From Patescibacteria group bacterium (GTDB lineage Bacteria > Patescibacteriota > Patescibacteriia > Patescibacteriales > UBA12465), in the NCBI GenBank assembly GCA_038245255.1, contig JBBRSQ010000001.1, forward strand, positions 2,335 through 66,334: 64,000 nt of DNA. Reading direction: 5' to 3'. Within the stretch, counting starts at the first letter, position 1, and each line of letters starts with the position of its first letter. A program made the position numbers and the translations under genes. Of this stretch, positions 3,042 through 55,061 are shown in pieces. The notes below the pieces were generated by a model that was not told the origin of the DNA, did not search any database, and saw nothing but the letters and a program-made list of their open reading frames with translations.

Positions 3042-4737
3042 ATTTAGTCCAATCTTCAGCGATTTCGACTAAAATCTTAAATGGTGCCTCAAGAATGAAA
3101 TCAAAAATAAATATAAATACATTAATCTTTGAAACATTGTTTGATAACCACTTGCCAACTAAAATTATCGGCATGTAAAACAAATCGATAATAAAAGTAA
3201 ACAAATTCTCTCTTTTTTCGACAATTAAAAGGTCTTTAACGCCTTTGGTAACAATGATGCTAAAAAAGCTAACAAAGGCCAAGAAGAATAAGAATATCGT
3301 TATACTAACCCAATTAAAGTTAATAATTAGTAAAAGTTTAATAATTAAATAAATTGAAACTGTAAAGGAAGCCGCATAAATTAAACTAAATATCGCGCTA
3401 ATAAAGCCTTTACGCCCAACTGGCTTGCGTAAAGTAATCGGTTGTTTTTTTTCATTTCCAACAAAAGCAATTTCCTTAATTCCATTTATAATTTTGTCGG
3501 TATTATCCTCCTGTGGAGTTCTGGTTAAAAGAACGATAAAAAATAGAAGAACGGCTGGAAAAGAGATATTAATTCCTAGTGCGAATATATTTAAAGGCTC
3601 ATGAAACCAATTAATGGCCGGAAGCTCAATTGCAATTGCAAAAATAGATTTCGTTAAAAAAATATAAATAATGCTTCGAATGGCGGCGCGCCATAGTTTT
3701 CCTTTGGCCTTTTTATATTTTAAATTACATATTTTTCTAACACTAGCAATAAAATTCTTTTCGCTTTTCTGAAGCTCACCATAAACTTTCGTCGGATCAC
3801 TCTCAATTGTTTCCGCTAAGACTGTGAAATAAAGCGCATAAACCTGTACTAGTTTATCAAGTTGGCGCGTTAAAGGATGATTCAGCTGTACTTTAACTAT
3901 AGCATTAAGTTCGTGCATCTTTGCGGCAATCGCTTTTATTTTTTTATCATCATCAGCGTCTAAAACATCTTTATCACGTAAATCAATCCAATCGCTATTA
4001 TAATATTTAAATAAGACAAAACCGAGCATGTCTTCGTCTAGTTTTAAATAGGTTCGACCAATACTCAAATAAATTTGAATATCCAAATCATCGCCATAAG
4101 GCAAATCAGCTGGCAATTTAATATCTCTAACTAGGGTATCAAAAAGGTTATTTACAATTATCTGTTTAACGCGGTTAGGCGCAAGATTCTCTTCAATTTC
4201 GCAAGCTGCTAAAGTTAAAAGCCAAGTGACTAAATGATTTTTTTCATTAATTAAATCTTTCGCCCTATTAATATCAGTCTTCAGACTGAGTGAGGCATTA
4301 ATTTTCAAAACCATCTGATCCTTCAGGCGAATGTATTTTTCCAGTAAAACTGCAATTTCCCGTAGCTTTGTTTCTGGTATTTTATTGTTCGGCAAATAAC
4401 TAGCTCTAATAAGCTCAACCAGCAAGTGGTTGGCGATACCAACACTGTCAGTTTCTCTAACGACGCCTTCAATCATTACCTGCCGACGCAGAATCCGAGC
4501 TATCGCATTTTTACGAAGCAGATGTTCTTCTTCATAGTCAACAGCATTACGAACCTTTTCATAAAAAAAAGCCACCCGTGAAATTATCGTCGAAACTTTA
4601 ATTTTCGTGATATCATCAAAGAGTTGTTCTTTAATATTTTGTTCGCTGTAGATTACTTGAAAAAGTTTTTTTGTGTTCTCATTAATCTCCACCGGTTGCA
4701 AATCTTCGGCTCTTTTAATTAGATTTGGGCTAACCAT
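3010..4737 (-). CDS. hypothetical membrane protein with a soluble N-terminal domain and a C-terminal multi-TM region
   Basis: 575-aa ORF. The C-terminal third is strongly hydrophobic. No motif was recognised. Confidence 0.5.
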   Translation of the reverse strand: MVSPNLIKRAEDLQPVEINENTKKLFQVIYSEQNIKEQLFDDITKIKVSTIISRVAFFYEKVRNAVDYEEEHLLRKNAIARILRRQVMIEGVVRETDSVGIANHLLVELIRASYLPNNKIPETKLREIAVLLEKYIRLKDQMVLKINASLSLKTDINRAKDLINEKNHLVTWLLTLAACEIEENLAPNRVKQIIVNNLFDTLVRDIKLPADLPYGDDLDIQIYLSIGRTYLKLDEDMLGFVLFKYYNSDWIDLRDKDVLDADDDKKIKAIAAKMHELNAIVKVQLNHPLTRQLDKLVQVYALYFTVLAETIESDPTKVYGELQKSEKNFIASVRKICNLKYKKAKGKLWRAAIRSIIYIFLTKSIFAIAIELPAINWFHEPLNIFALGINISFPAVLLFFIVLLTRTPQEDNTDKIINGIKEIAFVGNEKKQPITLRKPVGRKGFISAIFSLIYAASFTVSIYLIIKLLLIINFNWVSITIFLFFLAFVSFFSIIVTKGVKDLLIVEKRENLFTFIIDLFYMPIILVGKWLSNNVSKINVFIFIFDFILEAPFKILVEIAEDWTKYVRERRENME

Positions 4738-49814: not shown

Positions 49815-50489
49815 TTATTTAAATAAAACTGGTACTTTTACTGAAGCATCATTTTCTGGCAAACCGGAAGGATTATCTTTAGAAATTACTAAATAACCAC
49901 TAGTCGCCATTGTCAAATATGTTAACTCAGAAGTAAATCTAACCGGCTTTTCAGTCATCCAGTCATCTTGAGCGGTACCGTAATGAGCGACAATTAAATT
50001 ATTATTATTGTCATATAATTTAACTGGCAAAGTCGCTTCAAAAAACCAATTACCAATAGCCGTGCCTTCAATTTTTAAAGGTGAGCTAACAAGTTCGTTT
50101 TGTTTTGGACTAACAACGACTACTTCATTAGAGAAGCTCGCTTGAGGTTCATCTCCTGCCTGAGTGCTAGTCACAATATCCATTTCACATTTTTCCTCCC
50201 AAACACGTAAACACTTCTCTTTTAAATCACACCAAGAATAACCAGCCGAGGCAATACAACCATGTTCGTCTCGGTCATTTCCGACTAAAGATTCTCCCTG
50301 ACTACCAGGGCAAAGTGTTGTTGGCCTGGCTGCCTTTGGATTTCCGTGCTTAGCCCATTGACTATCAGTACAGACCCAATTGTCTTCCTGACTAGTGGCT
50401 CGTAAAACAATTGCACTAAAGATAATAACACCAACTACTCCTAACAATAAATAAGATTTTTTCATAAAATTATTTTTATTAATTACCAA
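49815..50489 (-). CDS. hypothetical secreted Cys-rich protein
   Basis: Signal peptide MKKSYLLLGVVGVIIFSAIV and 8 Cys in the mature part. The start is likely the ATG at 50465; the track start is a TTG. Lies immediately downstream of the promoter at the left inverted-repeat terminus. Confidence 0.55.
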   Translation of the reverse strand: MVINKNNFMKKSYLLLGVVGVIIFSAIVLRATSQEDNWVCTDSQWAKHGNPKAARPTTLCPGSQGESLVGNDRDEHGCIASAGYSWCDLKEKCLRVWEEKCEMDIVTSTQAGDEPQASFSNEVVVVSPKQNELVSSPLKIEGTAIGNWFFEATLPVKLYDNNNNLIVAHYGTAQDDWMTEKPVRFTSELTYLTMATSGYLVISKDNPSGLPENDASVKVPVLFK

Positions 50490-50494
50490 CTTAT

Positions 50495-50849
50495 GGTGTC
50501 TCTATTGTACCAAGTTAGAACCTATTTTCAAAACAAATGATGTCGCACGCGCGAAGCGCGTGGTGAAGCGAAACTAAATCGTACGCTCGGAGAATCGCCC
50601 TGCCACCGCCTCGCTTCGCTCGGCAACTCCGAAAGAAAAAACACTCCTTGCATTTCTGATTTGGCGGGGGTGAAATTTCTTTTGAAAAAGGAAAGGGTGT
50701 TTTTCTTTCGGGGTTCTGCCCGAAAAGATATTCGGACAGGCGGAGTGCAAATGCAAATGTGGAACGCGAGCGGAAAATTTTGCGGAGGACTGGGGGTTTG
50801 GGCGAAAGGACTCCGCAAAATTCTGTTTCGCGTATTTGATTTTGTGGGG
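50495..50849. repeat. left copy of a 355-bp GC-rich inverted repeat (IR-L), likely a structured non-coding element
   Basis: Reverse-complement match to 53816..54170 with only 2 mismatches. About 55-60% GC in a ~35% GC context. Contains internal hairpins (cacgcgc-gaa-gcgcgtg; ttttgcggag...ctccgcaaaa) and a long-range 15-nt complementary pair (ccgaaagaaaaaaca / tgtttttctttcgg). Confidence 0.9.
50504..50537 (-). promoter_or_regulatory. outward-facing extended -10 promoter at the IR-L outer terminus, reading into the Cys-rich secreted protein gene
   Basis: On the minus strand TTGAAA, 16-nt spacer, TGgTACAAT (-10 hexamer at 50509-50504). The predicted transcription start near 50497 is ~32 nt upstream of the ATG at 50465. 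Confidence 0.5.
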
Positions 50850-50906: not shown

Positions 50907-51536
50907 TTATGATAATTTTATTTTTCCAAAGCTATTTTCTTTAATTTCACTTGATAAATTTAATCTTTCTCTAACTTTATTATTTATTTCTTGAATTGTT
51001 TCTTTTAAATCTCCATTGTTATTGATAAAATCGATAGAAATACCAAGTTCTTTAGCCTGTTTAATGGCTTCATTTTTTTCTAATTCTAATTGCTCTTGTA
51101 TATAATTAAAATCTATAACTCTATCATTTCTTTCAGAAATATCTTTTATTCTTCTATTGAGAATATTCTCTGGAGTTGAATTAACAACGAAAATCGCTTT
51201 CATTTGCTCATAATCTTCATTACGAATATTCCTCACAGAAAAATCTTTACCTTCTACTTCAAAATAAATAAAATGACCATCTAAAATTCTAATTGTATAA
51301 GGATCATTTTTATCTTCCTCATAAATTATTCTAAACATTTCTGGTCTATATTTTCCACGAACATCATCTGGTAGTTTTCTAAATTCTTCTGGAGAAATAT
51401 CACCAGCAAGATGGCACAGAATTGGTAAACCGCGAATTCTAAGAGCCTTATGACTTTCATCATTCAATCTCTCTACAAGTCCTTTAATTACAGAAGTTTT
51501 TCCAGTACCAGGTATTCCAGCAACGTAAATAAACAT
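50907..51536 (-). CDS. P-loop NTPase, predicted (deoxy)nucleotide/nucleoside kinase-like (AAA/adenylate-kinase-like fold)
   Basis: Walker A GIPGTGKTS at the extreme N-terminus. Small 209-aa kinase-like size. Confidence 0.65.
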   Translation of the reverse strand: MFIYVAGIPGTGKTSVIKGLVERLNDESHKALRIRGLPILCHLAGDISPEEFRKLPDDVRGKYRPEMFRIIYEEDKNDPYTIRILDGHFIYFEVEGKDFSVRNIRNEDYEQMKAIFVVNSTPENILNRRIKDISERNDRVIDFNYIQEQLELEKNEAIKQAKELGISIDFINNNGDLKETIQEINNKVRERLNLSSEIKENSFGKIKLS

Positions 51537-51539
51537 AAA

Positions 51540-52112
51540 TTATTGTGTATTAAAAATACATTCCCCTGTTAAATTATTCTGAGTTTTATATTCATCCCAA
51601 AGTTTTAAATACGCTTTATTTATTCTTTCATTTTTTTCTAAACCTAATTCTAAAATAGATTTTTCTATATTATCTTCTTCTCCTTCTATTTCAATAAAAT
51701 AACCAAAAGGTAATTCATCAACAACAAAATCACAATTATTTATATTTTCCAGTCTGTATCTTCTCTTCTCAAAAATATGTTCGATTGGGTATTCTAAAGC
51801 AAAGAACATGCCTCTTATACTATTTATTTTTTCATCATCAACATTCTCTAACAAAAACTCATGCTCATCTCTTATAAATAAGTTCCCCAGATTTTCTTCT
51901 TTCTTATTTTTAACCTTTACTGTTACATAAGCTTTTCTACTATCTTTTTCTATTACTTCTTTTATTCTAGGGAAAATTCCCTTTTCCATATTCTTATATT
52001 CATTCGTAAAAAAACCATATGTTTTTTCAAACTGAAACTTACTTTTATCTTTTACAAATTTGTCAAAAATTTCTTTATTTATTTTTAATTTAATTTCTAT
52101 TTCTTTTTTCAT
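51540..52112 (-). CDS. CYTH-domain (triphosphate tunnel metalloenzyme / class IV adenylate cyclase-like) protein
   Basis: N-terminal EIEIKLKI matches the ExExK CYTH signature. The ~190-aa length fits a single CYTH domain. Confidence 0.55.
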   Translation of the reverse strand: MKKEIEIKLKINKEIFDKFVKDKSKFQFEKTYGFFTNEYKNMEKGIFPRIKEVIEKDSRKAYVTVKVKNKKEENLGNLFIRDEHEFLLENVDDEKINSIRGMFFALEYPIEHIFEKRRYRLENINNCDFVVDELPFGYFIEIEGEEDNIEKSILELGLEKNERINKAYLKLWDEYKTQNNLTGECIFNTQ

Positions 52113-52132
52113 ATTTTAAAAATTAAAAAATA

Positions 52133-52996
52133 TTAATAATAACCTCCAGATTTTTTAGGATAGGGTTTTAAATACTCAGTTCTATCTTTTATTTTTGCTT
52201 CCAAAAAACACCTTCTTCTGTCCCAACAACAAGGACAAGTTCCACAATGAATTTTACTTGATTTTATACAACTTCTTGTTTTTGAAAGATCTAGACCATT
52301 TTCTTCACAATAAGTGATTAAAACATCCTTGTCGTAATAATTACCCAATTCTACTTCAATAGGTAAAGATATATATTGAAAGTTATAATCGTTTAAAATA
52401 TGGCAAGTTTCTAGATTAAGCATTCTCTGCCAAGTAAGAGAACAATGAAAAGAAGTATCGCTAGCAACATGTGCAATAAAAACAGTGTTAACATTCATTC
52501 CTTTATTTTTTAAAGAAATTGCATACTCCATACCCGTAAGAAATATAATAGAGTTTCTAGCTGGATAAGATACATGGGCTGAATGTTCTTTTTTATAAAA
52601 TTTCTTTTTTACTTCTCTTAAATCATCTTTGTATTCCAAGGCGGGTGTATTAACTTTAATTTCTTTTGTTTTGTGGTAAAGTTTTGGAAATTTTTTAGCA
52701 AAAAGTTTATCATAATAATTAATTGATTTTTTTTCCCATTTATAACAATTTTGACCTCTATTTATAAAAAATGGAAACACTTGATAACCAAACTCATTCA
52801 TCAAAATAAAAATATTTGACACCGCATCTGCTCCACCAGACATACAACACACAACAGCACTACCCTTTGGAGGCATTTTTACAACATAATTTCTTTTATC
52901 TATAAAAATTTTATTTAGGACTTTTACAACTTTTAAATCTTCGTTTATTTTATCCTCAATTTTTATTTTGCCTTTATTCTTGATTATTTTGATCAT
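52133..52996 (-). CDS. PP-loop ATPase (adenine-nucleotide alpha-hydrolase), QueC-like with a C-terminal Cys cluster
   Basis: SGGADAVS PP-loop after a ~45-aa N-terminal extension. C-terminal CIKSSKIHCGTCPCCWDRRRC resembles the QueC zinc-binding motif. Confidence 0.6.
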   Translation of the reverse strand: MIKIIKNKGKIKIEDKINEDLKVVKVLNKIFIDKRNYVVKMPPKGSAVVCCMSGGADAVSNIFILMNEFGYQVFPFFINRGQNCYKWEKKSINYYDKLFAKKFPKLYHKTKEIKVNTPALEYKDDLREVKKKFYKKEHSAHVSYPARNSIIFLTGMEYAISLKNKGMNVNTVFIAHVASDTSFHCSLTWQRMLNLETCHILNDYNFQYISLPIEVELGNYYDKDVLITYCEENGLDLSKTRSCIKSSKIHCGTCPCCWDRRRCFLEAKIKDRTEYLKPYPKKSGGYY

Positions 52997-53720
52997 ATTT
53001 TTTATAACTATTAATTATTTTTTTAGCATCCTCAATTGTTTCTTGATAAATATGAGCATCAGTAATCATTCCATCCAAAGAACCGATCCAAATTTTTGTG
53101 TTTAGTTTAGTTTCTAATCTCTTTGCTACCTCTTCAGATAGTAATGCAATCGCAGCAAAATTACCTCCAGCTTTCTGGTAGGCATCTATTGATCGTGCAT
53201 TAAAAATTGTATTTAAATGATAGCCATTCTGATTATCAATTTTAATTAATCTGAATTGAATAGTTGTAATACAGGGCAGATAATCATCTTTGGGTCTTTC
53301 AAGAGTTCTTTCATAATCTTCTTTTCTGACAAAGCTCATTATAGCTTTTTTGCTTTCTGGTATTTCTGCAAGCCTATCCACCACAAAATCAAGCATTTTC
53401 CATTCTTTGATTCTTGCATAATAGCTTTGACTTCCATCTGAGAATGATGGAACAATATCAAAGTCATGCATAATTTCTTTATTAAAAGTTAAATCAATAA
53501 TTGCATCTATGTTTTCTTTATCCCCATATCGACTAAGCAATTGATCTGGATAAATTTGGGAGTTTGATCTAACTCTAATATTTTGAAGACATAATCTATT
53601 TCTGCCTTCATCAGAAGTTATGTTCCCATTTTTTAAAATTACTTCTACTAAACTTAACCAGGTACTCCCCAATACTTCACCATAAATCAAAAGGCCAAAA
53701 GGCTCTATTTTTATGTACAT
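52974..53720 (-). CDS. thymidylate-synthase-fold enzyme (ThyA-like pyrimidine C5 methylase/hydroxymethylase homolog)
   Basis: SKKAIMSFV, YLPCITTIQFRL and ARSIDAYQKAGGNFAAIALL align to the ThyA SRRIIVSAW, LAPCHAFFQFYV and [20 protein letters not shown] motifs. The catalytic Cys and the uracil-specifying Asn are retained. Confidence 0.7.
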   Translation of the reverse strand: MYIKIEPFGLLIYGEVLGSTWLSLVEVILKNGNITSDEGRNRLCLQNIRVRSNSQIYPDQLLSRYGDKENIDAIIDLTFNKEIMHDFDIVPSFSDGSQSYYARIKEWKMLDFVVDRLAEIPESKKAIMSFVRKEDYERTLERPKDDYLPCITTIQFRLIKIDNQNGYHLNTIFNARSIDAYQKAGGNFAAIALLSEEVAKRLETKLNTKIWIGSLDGMITDAHIYQETIEDAKKIINSYKKYDQNNQE

Positions 53721-53815: not shown

Positions 53816-54170
53816 CCCCACAAAATCAAATACGCGAAACAGAATTTTGCGGAGTCCTTTCGCCCAAACCCCCAGTCCTCCGCAAAATTTTCCGCTCGCG
53901 TTCCACATTTGCATTTGCACTCCGCCTGTCCGAATATCTATTCGGGCAGAACCCCGAAAGAAAAACACCCTTTCCTTTTTCAAAAGAAATTTCACCCCCG
54001 CCAAATCAGAAATGCAAGGAGTGTTTTTTCTTTCGGGGTTGCCGAGCGAAGCGAGGCGGTGGCAGGGCGATTCTCCGAGCGTACGATTTAGTTTCGCTTC
54101 ACCACGCGCTTCGCGCGTGCGACATCATTTGTTTTGAAAATAGGTTCTAACTTGGTACAATAGAGACACC
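53816..54170. repeat. right copy of the 355-bp GC-rich inverted repeat (IR-R)
   Basis: Reverse complement of 50495..50849 with 2 mismatches. An outward-facing TTGAAA-N16-TGgTACAAT promoter sits at 54134..54161 on the + strand. Confidence 0.9.
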
Positions 54171-54215
54171 AGAAACGAACTAGACGGCTTTTTCAAAGCC
54201 GTCTAGTTCGTTTCT
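54171..54215. repeat. 45-bp perfect palindrome (21-bp arms, 3-nt loop) between IR-R and the tRNA-Leu 3' end; likely a bidirectional terminator or recombination site
   Basis: agaaacgaactagacggcttt-ttc-aaagccgtctagttcgtttct. Exact complementarity over 21 bp. Shares its last nucleotide with the tRNA 3' end. Confidence 0.85.
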
Positions 54216-54300
54216 GGTGCCCGAGGGGGGATTTGAACCCCCATGGGATTTCTCCCGCAGCGTTCTGAACACTGCGTGTCTACCGTTTCACCACCCGTGC
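54215..54300 (-). tRNA. tRNA-Leu (anticodon CAG), type II with a long variable arm, CCA encoded
   Basis: Minus strand reads GCACGGGTGGTGAAACGGTAGACACGCAGTGTTCAGAACGCTGCGGGAGAAATCCCATGGGGGTTCAAATCCCCCCTCGGGCACCA. Folds into a cloverleaf with a D-arm, anticodon loop TTCAGAA, variable stem CGGGA/TCCC, T-arm GGGGGTTCAAATCCCCC and a 7-bp acceptor stem with one A-G mismatch. Confidence 0.85.
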
Positions 54301-54455: not shown

Positions 54456-55061
54456 ATGAATGAAGGAAATGCTTGCCCATCCGCTTCGGTGGGAATTTTA
54501 GTACCAAAAACTCCCAGTGGTTTTTTTGCGGGCGTTAGTATTAAAAATTATCTGTCGACATATTTGAAGATTGTCGAACCCCAAATCATTGAGGTAATGC
54601 CCTGTCAATTAAAGCAGCTTAAAATTAATCAGAAAATTGATAAACTGTATGTGCTTGGACTAGGGATTAAGAATACTCCGCCATCTGCCCTCAAGGATTT
54701 TATCGGGACCTACGAAGAAAGAATTGCTCTCTGGGTAGATCATCACCCGGGATCTAGACTGATTTCCGAATTGAAAGGAAAATATAACTATCTTCATGGT
54801 AGCGATAAAGATAGTGCGTCGACCACCGCTTTAATGGGCATCAAGCTCGGAAAATGTATAAAGCAAGAATGGATAGACGCCACTAATCATTTCGAAAATC
54901 CCTTCTTCTTTCTTCCAAACCATTTAGTTAAGCATTACAAAAAAATTATAGTACCCGCAAACGGGCAAACGAAAGAAGCTAAAAAGCTTTTTTCTGAATA
55001 CCTACTAACGGGAAAACCAAGTATCGATGAAATTCATCTCCTCCTAAGCAAGCAAGCGTAG
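54456..55061 (+). CDS. hypothetical protein (possible degenerate DHH-phosphoesterase-like)
   Basis: 201 aa with a DHH tripeptide in LWVDHHPGS. No other motif secure. Confidence 0.35.
   Translation: MNEGNACPSASVGILVPKTPSGFFAGVSIKNYLSTYLKIVEPQIIEVMPCQLKQLKINQKIDKLYVLGLGIKNTPPSALKDFIGTYEERIALWVDHHPGSRLISELKGKYNYLHGSDKDSASTTALMGIKLGKCIKQEWIDATNHFENPFFFLPNHLVKHYKKIIVPANGQTKEAKKLFSEYLLTGKPSIDEIHLLLSKQA

Follow-up and report, generated by a model that had tools for sequence, protein, structure and literature searches.

A perfect 53-bp palindrome beside a tRNA-Leu gene of a Patescibacteria group bacterium, read as the joined tips of a serine-recombinase element

The 64-kb stretch of Patescibacteria group bacterium DNA analysed here (the window, within which all positions are given) carries a genomic island next to a tRNA-Leu(CAG) gene, and at the junction of the two lies a perfect palindrome. 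We read this palindrome as the two 25-bp tips of the terminal inverted repeats (TIRs) of a large serine recombinase (LSR) element, joined at a 15-bp core with the ~1.8-kb body of the element absent, which would make it a recombination site that is free of its LSR; we put the probability of this reading at roughly 0.7. It is nearly certain that tips of this element family gave rise to the palindrome, and an excision footprint or a docking site is the best reading of such an LSR-free site. Whether the palindrome is an active or precisely generated LSR site, as opposed to the product of a fortuitous deletion, is in our estimation an even call. Comparison loci and contigs are designated by L-numbers (L001, L083 and so on).

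The palindrome occupies positions 54167-54219 and consists of two 25-nt arms, 100% complementary to one another, about a 3-nt centre (25+3+25 = 53 bp). A preliminary description of this DNA had recorded a 45-bp perfect palindrome at 54171-54215 (21+3+21); that structure exists and is perfect, but it is merely the inner part of the full one, in which four outer pairs beyond the 21-nt arms give arms that end in CACCA and TGGTG. The TGGTG of the right arm is the complement of C72-A73-C74-C75-A76 of tRNA-Leu(CAG), and the overlap with the tRNA gene (whose ARAGORN end lies at 54215) is 5 nt and not the single shared base first described. Likewise, the CACCA of the left arm is also the end of the right copy of a 359-bp inverted repeat, here called X, such that the palindrome overlaps the repeat by 5-8 nt and does not, as had been thought, begin one base past it. 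Within the window a 20-nt arm sequence is found only at the two palindrome positions (0 expected from 100 shuffles), and there is no second palindrome with arms of at least 16 nt; on these grounds a dispersed repeat of the repetitive extragenic palindromic/bacterial interspersed mosaic element (REP/BIME), Correia or uptake type was rejected. A Neisseria-type uptake sequence (GCCGTCT in the arm) was also rejected, the host being a 35%-GC Patescibacterium and the motif single-copy. Rfam searches with the repeat and the palindrome returned sub-threshold chance matches only, and no known RNA family. The hairpin predicted for plus-strand RNA has a folding energy of -48.5 kcal/mol (z = -10.9, with 0 shuffles folding as well), that for minus-strand RNA -43.9 kcal/mol (z = -12.2) and that for DNA -30.1 kcal/mol (z = -14.6); within the tRNA precursor the stem is predicted to reach up to 28 pairs when G-U pairs are included.

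The identity of the arms became apparent from the contigs that a metagenome scan with one 20-nt arm returned (L081-L084). The arm and core of the window are identical at 34 of 34 nt to L083:6-39 and to L081:5726-5759, where in each case the remainder of a TIR of ~148 bp and an LSR gene come next, and the right arm is identical to L083:1849-1882 and L082:2347-2380 (as the reverse complement), both of which adjoin a tRNA-Arg(TCT) gene. In L083 the arm and its reverse complement form the outermost 25 nt of TIRs of ~148 bp (1 mismatch) that enclose a protein of 521 aa whose domains are Resolvase, Recombinase and Zn-ribbon (PF00239, PF07508 and PF13408), and its right tip runs directly into the tRNA-Arg(TCT) gene at the 3' end of the latter. 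The preliminary description had offered, among other possibilities, a recombination site marking an insertion junction, and this suggestion has held up, given that the arms are the terminal 25 nt of the TIRs of an LSR element and that other genomes carry intact units at the corresponding position. In the window itself, tblastn over the 64 kb detected no LSR.

An intact LSR unit measures ~1.85 kb, with TIRs of ~145 bp (145-146 nt and 99-100% identical in L092 and L093). The L083 protein resembles the A118 integrase in the PDB (E = 6e-8), while the identity of the element LSR to phage LSRs is only 25-28%, and its nearest curated family is CcrB, at 124.7 bits against a cut-off of 900. The family is large in Patescibacteria, with >6,300 matches at E < 1e-20; the best 120 homologs are 74-82% identical and belong to Patescibacteria wherever a host is named, and many of them lie on contigs of ~1.9-2.1 kb, as expected of a multi-copy unit. 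The plan of the unit is [...TTGrAAATAGGTTC(TA/GG)ACTTGGTACAATArAsA]-CACCA-[TIR-L]-LSR-[TIR-R]-TGGTG-[tRNA, antisense], and it recurs in nine further loci fetched via LSR homologs, beside tRNA genes for Leu(TAG), Ile(TAT), Leu(GAG), Val(TAC) and Tyr(GTA) (the loci repeating it, as named, are L085, L086, L088, L091, L092, L093 and L094). All 9 resolved loci have one tip joined to the CCA end of a tRNA, and the other tip adjoins an invariant 45-nt promoter-like block in seven of the eight loci with a readable left flank, the sole exception being L085, where a diverged TIR-L lies against the 3' end of tRNA-Ile(GAT). The LSR gene is situated exactly between both arms in L081, L083, L085, L086, L088 and L091-L094. 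Its reading frame has no stop inside the element and ends 35-123 nt past the tip, within the antisense tRNA (L083 353-1918; also L085, L086, L088 and L091-L094), so that the C-terminus is set by the insertion site, with protein lengths of 511-650 aa. The literature that we searched contained no description of an LSR/TIR/tRNA-CCA family of this kind; IMG/VR, scanned for the arm, for the end and the promoter block of X and for the predicted empty site of another TIR type, gave 0 matches, and BLAST of X plus palindrome against annotated plasmids and phages gave none either.

Several further observations were made on these contigs. At 3500-3680 of L085 the tRNA-Ile(GAT) gene at the left end of the unit is on the opposite strand and is preceded by a truncated copy of its own 5' half, which suggests a rearrangement between two units at different tRNAs. 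A perfect 20-bp hairpin stands right before the LSR start codon in L092 (2919-2985), L094 (2918-2986) and L083 (~270-340), with compensatory changes between loci, and is probably a regulatory structure. The Nextera adapter (CTGTCTCTTATACACATCT...) at the end of contig L082 (2389-2421), just past the TIR core, is contamination and not biology. In L084, an IS3-family OrfA/OrfB transposase pair (31-1210) lies directly left of the X homolog, which it apparently truncates. Last, a multi-copy palindrome family, GATAAGTCCACG...CGTGGACTTATC, occurs near tRNA genes in L032 (7822-9866).

The manner in which the two tips are joined is best appreciated at the core. Occupied ends read tip(25)-NNN-rAArCC-inner TIR, whereas in the window the left tip, TTC and AAAGCC pass straight into the right tip. 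The left end of L083 thus reads arm-TTC-AAAGCC-ATAAGGTGGG..., and its right end the reverse complement of this, against arm-TTC-AAAGCC-arm' in the window, and the homology between window and occupied ends breaks right after AAAGCC (ATAAGGTGGGACG... versus GTCTAG...). The occupied ends are hybrids that have the core in common with the empty site, as in LSR attachment sites, whose occupied forms are attL = B-o-P' and attR = P-o-B'. A second LSR-free site was found in L084, an unrelated JGI metagenome contig, in which X-like sequence (89%) is followed by a palindrome identical to ours at 51 of 53 positions and by a tRNA-Arg(TCT) gene. Relative to the LSR-occupied L081, the X body of the window is 76.5% identical (62/81), as compared with 34/34 for arm and core, an agreement that has a chance of ~1e-4 at the neutral rate. 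Since arm and core are kept far better than the X body, the arms are either strongly constrained or recently derived from an L083-type unit; either way, the sequences indicate that they are functionally part of the LSR unit and not a decaying relic.

The surroundings of the tRNA gene point to the same foreign origin. By its rnhB gene, a neighbour of this locus, the window falls within Patescibacteria, near Candidatus Falkowbacteria. Eleven Falkowbacteria/Patescibacteria genomes that carry tRNA-Leu(CAG) were compared with the window, and the region from 49.8 to 54.5 kb was searched by BLAST against 80 related loci. The palindrome is absent after tRNA-Leu(CAG) in 11/11 relatives; in every one of them the gene ends in GGGCAC followed by unrelated sequence, and an encoded CCA is found in 0/11. 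Eight of these genomes (L001, L003, L004, L005, L008, L011, L015 and L023) have tRNA-Val(CAC) directly after tRNA-Leu(CAG), and in L001 the gene next after tRNA-Val is the ortholog of the window's Gmad2-domain gene (49815-50465). In the 3 other relatives, unrelated inserts of 1-2.7 kb separate the two tRNA genes, and this identifies the spacer between them as a variable hotspot. No tRNA-Val is present in the whole window (1-64000), in which the repeat-cassette-repeat island and the palindrome occupy its place; the BLAST searches matched the flanking genes and the tRNA, and did not match the repeat, the palindrome or the cassette. At the level of sequence, then, the palindrome is shown to be foreign to this tRNA locus, and the encoded CCA of the tRNA-Leu is element-derived.

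It is reasonable to postulate a mechanism by which such a site might arise. The att sites of known LSRs (A118, Bxb1, phiC31) are ~40-50 bp long, and because the 53 bp of the palindrome fit this size, an LSR dimer may be envisaged to bind its two identical 25-bp half-sites. The LSR unit would leave by recombination of TIR-L with TIR-R in the symmetric core flanks, leaving B-TTC-B' in the chromosome; alternatively, the site may never have been occupied. A direct-orientation 2-nt crossover is possible in the core flanks since the two TIRs agree on the top strand at GGCTTT and AAAGCC, and an exchange there would yield the sequence of the window together with a circle bearing the joined inner TIRs. 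As the window has no LSR of its own, the site would be reusable by an LSR acting in trans. The unit has two junctions, each with two-fold symmetry on CAC (...GAGA-CAC on the repeat side and ...GGG-CAC on the tRNA side). A crossover at the centre of the palindrome or inside CACCA was considered and rejected on polarity, as the ends are perfect inverted repeats through both. Three by-products may follow from the presence of the site: the arm would complete the encoded CCA of tRNA-Leu, the hairpin of 25-28 bp would probably end or process the tRNA-Leu transcript, and the same hairpin, standing at the 5' end of any transcript from the X promoter, may limit antisense-tRNA RNA. More tentatively still, the palindrome could be a live and reusable docking or excision site of an undescribed modular system of Patescibacteria, in which a promoter-bearing pad, namely the invariant 45-nt block with CAC at its end, sits at tRNA CCA ends, LSR units with perfect inverted ends of ~145 bp plug in and leave at the core, and cargo bounded by inverted pad copies is stacked beside them. 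Such a system, which we regard as doubtful, would by analogy resemble a cassette chromosome or an integron, with the distinction that its recombinase is of the serine type, that its junctions have two-fold symmetry and that the target completes the recombinase reading frame.

A number of points weigh against reading the palindrome as an LSR site. The observed ends cannot result from a classical attB x attP exchange in the centre of the dyad, because the TIRs are perfect through the central 3 nt; these read TTC on the left and GAA on the right of the top strand, with no direct non-palindromic central dinucleotide, and the off-centre crossover proposed above would be atypical for LSRs and is hypothetical. 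The circle junction that this crossover predicts (P-o-P', ...CCTTATGGCTTT-NNN-AAAGCCATAAGG...) has 0 matches in IMG/VR, the sole set scanned. The 25-nt tip co-varies with the inner TIR across element types, and as such a tip that is part of the element fits better than an independent chromosomal attB. We found no pair of occupied and empty sites at the same tRNA in the same species, and the history of the site may have been excision, no occupation at any time, or the arrival of a transposed miniature. Furthermore, the palindrome was not recovered independently from Logan contigs of the same sample, where the contig ends 280 nt upstream of rnhB. Lastly, a 6-bp microhomology deletion between the two AAAGCC copies would give the same sequence without any enzyme.

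This last point underlies the main rival explanation, in which the palindrome is an inert deletion scar without present function, the interior of an LSR unit having been lost by slipped-strand or microhomology deletion at the 6-bp repeats (AAAGCC or GGCTTT). The 6-bp direct repeats that the core supplies are exact and suitably placed, an LSR is missing from the window, and deletions are stimulated by long inverted repeats. However, the arms are identical at 34/34 nt to an active-looking element as against 76.5% in the X body, the palindrome is still perfect over 25/25 pairs, and L084 exhibits the same joint at the same core beside a different tRNA, which argues for a precise and repeatable reaction or for continued mobility and against a chance deletion. 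We therefore consider the scar to be distinctly improbable, disfavoured as it is by this conservation and by the second empty site. Far less probable again is an artefact of assembly, in which the 359-bp inverted repeat would have produced a chimeric or fold-back join. Inverted repeats do break short-read assemblies, Logan contigs end 30-77 nt inside X, and the palindrome junction itself has not been independently recovered. A fold-back contig is nevertheless inconsistent with a symmetry limited to 25 nt per side; independent runs show the left junction as well as the two cassette junctions, a homologous X-palindrome-tRNA order occurs in a different metagenome (L084), and L093 has the same overall architecture.

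It is also conceivable that the palindrome acts at the level of RNA, as a terminator or 3'-processing signal of tRNA-Leu on the minus strand and an insulator against antisense-tRNA RNA on the plus strand, its recombinational origin being incidental. The hairpin is predicted to have high stability in RNA of either strand, the tail that follows the stem on the minus strand (UCUCUAUU) has 5 U in 8, the expected start of the promoter-like site on X is the first base of the stem, and another long palindrome lies over a tRNA 3' end, in L085 (5716-5765; also in L086 and L087), with 23-bp arms that overlap the 3' end of tRNA-Lys(CTT). Rho-independent tRNA terminators likewise present a stable hairpin right after the tRNA, and on its strand a tail that is moderately rich in U. 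Yet the stem (GC 0.49) has 25-28 bp in place of the ~5-14 bp of such terminators, in keeping with the preliminary remark that a stem so long is unusual for a simple terminator; there is no proper U tract, least of all in the plus-strand tail (CCCGAGGG), and the consensus terminator scan made no call. The structure is not kept in relatives, which end or process their tRNA-Leu without it, and an RNA-level function leaves the identity to the LSR TIR tips unexplained. We judge this explanation unlikely, although a role in RNA is plausible as a secondary one, compatible with a recombination site whose hairpin is predicted to form in either transcript; a block to the outward X promoter, as proposed earlier, would be a possible and likewise secondary part of it. 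A native tRNA-Leu terminator older than the cassette, the other early proposal, has in its favour a position directly after the tRNA. This origin is excluded by the comparison with relatives, none of which keeps the palindrome beside tRNA-Leu(CAG) and eight of which have tRNA-Val in its place without an encoded CCA before it; the same arms, moreover, stand beside tRNA-Arg, Leu(TAG) and other tRNAs in unrelated genomes. We attach next to no credence to it.

The site may be compared with several established systems. Similarly to the att sites of A118, Bxb1 and phiC31, the site here is ~50 bp with two inverted half-sites of ~25 bp, the dyad symmetry of att sites makes the ends of an integrated element look like inverted repeats, and the cognate protein has the Resolvase, Recombinase and Zn-ribbon architecture of an A118-like integrase. 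Those att sites, however, are imperfect palindromes whose central dinucleotide is non-palindromic and lies in direct orientation in attL and attR, while here the arms are perfect about a single-base dyad centre, the inverted repeats at the element ends are perfect over 145-148 bp, centre included, and the LSR, 25-28% identical to those of phages, has a frame without a stop in the element. The island as a whole calls to mind the staphylococcal cassette chromosome SCCmec, with its CcrAB/CcrC recombinases, and the ccr-less SCC-like cassettes: CcrB is the nearest family, a conserved housekeeping gene receives the insertion at its 3' end, modules bounded by inverted repeats stand in tandem, and recombinase-less cargo lies beside recombinase-bearing modules (the window versus L093). 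In contrast to SCCmec, the CcrB score of ~125 bits against the cut-off of 900 does not denote a Ccr protein, a tRNA CCA end takes the place of rlmH as target, the host phylum is Patescibacteria, and no 15-bp direct-repeat integration site flanks the island of the window, to which TGGTG alone is common. Miniature inverted-repeat transposable elements and solo-TIR footprints are comparable in being non-coding and in retaining only the TIR tips of an autonomous element that exists elsewhere (34/34 nt on each side, L083), but our tips have 25 nt each and occur as a single copy in the 64-kb window, the flanks (...GAGA and CCCGAG...) have no target-site duplication, and the autonomous element has a serine recombinase and not a DDE transposase. 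The tRNA islands of tyrosine integrases share a foreign island at a tRNA 3' end and a tRNA kept intact by an element-supplied 3' end; unlike them, the cargo here includes no tyrosine integrase, the junctions are two-fold symmetric, and the window has no direct repeat of the 3' part of the tRNA (L093 has one of 15 nt). By analogy, the palindrome is most like an LSR attachment site, and the island is most like an SCC-type cassette chromosome with recombinase-less modules; the two nonetheless lie outside the definitions of both an LSR att site and an SCC.

The island itself is made up of two inverted copies of X around a four-gene cargo cassette (Table 1). The outer 45 nt of X form a near-perfect predicted sigma-70-type promoter, and the outward promoter-like site that the preliminary description placed on the repeat is indeed present; its predicted start in the right copy, at ~54167-54169, falls on the first bases of the palindrome. 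This 45-nt block is near-invariant in 7 independent loci, with CACCA and a TIR tip always next to it, while the upstream X bodies are hardly alignable. In the left copy of X the outward block (50531..50504) faces the 216/224-aa Gmad2-domain gene, and the junction of this copy with host DNA was found again in an independent Logan contig, L099 (SRR19962014). There is no recombinase or integrase among the four cargo genes. Three Logan runs contain the same cassette with 30-77 nt of X, which confirms both cassette borders. An intrinsic tie of the cassette to X was rejected, in that a 70%-identical cassette lies between dnaJ and maf in L098 without X. The ThyA/QueC/CYTH/kinase cassette looks like a nucleotide- or DNA-modification module.

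The plan of the island is repeated in L093, where a perfect 198-bp inverted X pair surrounds three unrelated cargo genes and is followed by an intact LSR unit and tRNA-Tyr. Taken with the layout of the window, this indicates that the window consists of X (inverted), cargo, X, an LSR unit cut down to its two tips, and tRNA-Leu. A search of the window for a second copy of an 18-nt tRNA-Leu 3' segment, with <=3 mismatches allowed, found none, and TGGTG alone is common to both island borders. In L093, a 15-nt direct repeat of the tRNA-Tyr 3' end (GTGCGCCGGGAAGGA, at 184-199 and 4533-4547) stands 145 nt left of the left X copy and may represent the original tRNA end, displaced, and with it the outer limit of the island. 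As general island borders, direct repeats of this kind were rejected, being seen only in L093 and not in the window, L092 or L094.

Table 1. Positions of the palindrome, its parts and the adjoining features in the 64-kb window.
Feature	Position	Strand	Remarks
Left X copy	50491..50849	-	outer end ...GAGACACCA against host DNA, without arm
Cargo cassette	50907..53720	-	four genes: ThyA-like, QueC-like PP-loop ATPase, CYTH, P-loop kinase; GC 26-27%
Right X copy	53816..54174	+	359-bp inverted repeat, 99%; homologs in L084 (89%), L081 and L086
Promoter-like block, outer end of right X	54132..54166	+	-35 TTGAAA at 54134-54139, 16 nt, extended -10 TGgTACAAT ending at 54161; 10/12 match with TG
Left arm, CACCAGAAACGAACTAGACGGCTTT	54167..54191	+	homologous to the left-tip 25 nt of the TIR of the LSR unit
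Core, GGCTTT-TTC-AAAGCC	54186..54200	.	15-bp joint of the two tips; GGyTTy-NNN-rAArCC in every TIR type
Palindrome centre, TTC	54192..54194	+	sole asymmetric part; same TTC after the arm in the left TIR of L083 and L081; CTC in L084
Right arm, AAAGCCGTCTAGTTCGTTTCTGGTG	54195..54219	+	homologous to the right-tip 25 nt of the TIR of the LSR unit; last 5 nt = C72-A76 of tRNA-Leu
tRNA-Leu(CAG)	54215..54300	-	ARAGORN; Rfam tRNA at 54218-54300, 44.9 bits; CA of CCA from the palindrome arm

The tRNA-Leu(CAG) gene shows certain peculiarities relative to those of the 11 relatives: a change of C3 to A creates an A3.G70 mismatch in the acceptor, and the D-loop is one nt shorter. Together with the Rfam score of 44.9 bits, these oddities could be due to decay after the insertion or to sequencing error. 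An element-supplied acceptor strand was rejected as the source of the A3.G70 mismatch, the 3' strand being as in the relatives and the change lying on the 5' strand. Between tRNA-Leu and rnhB there is an open reading frame of 201 aa (54456-55061, plus strand) with no homolog among 5.8 billion proteins; this orphan is absent from L001, L003 and L004, where the tRNA is ~120 nt from rnhB, and it may have come in by a second insertion, 5' of the tRNA. In the spacer between tRNA-Leu and tRNA-Val of other genomes, L007 (7997-9725) and L013 (4863-6034) carry paralogous Cys-rich genes of ~165 aa with no assigned function.

For annotation, the palindrome is to be regarded as a junction feature of foreign DNA and not as a host terminator. 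It is, however, the element family that it revealed, more than the palindrome itself, which is the more interesting result, as the family is very abundant and apparently undescribed in the Candidate Phyla Radiation, a group whose mobile elements are little charted. Many of its features depart from the textbook scheme of LSRs, among them perfect inverted ends of ~145 bp, CAC-symmetric junctions, an obligatory linkage to tRNA CCA ends and to an invariant promoter block, a reading frame that runs into the antisense tRNA, and perfect palindromes free of the LSR. If the site is active, it would constitute a short, defined and symmetric substrate for a large new clade of serine recombinases, enzymes that are of interest for genome engineering, and it would explain how cargo such as the ThyA/QueC/CYTH/kinase cassette moves between reduced genomes.

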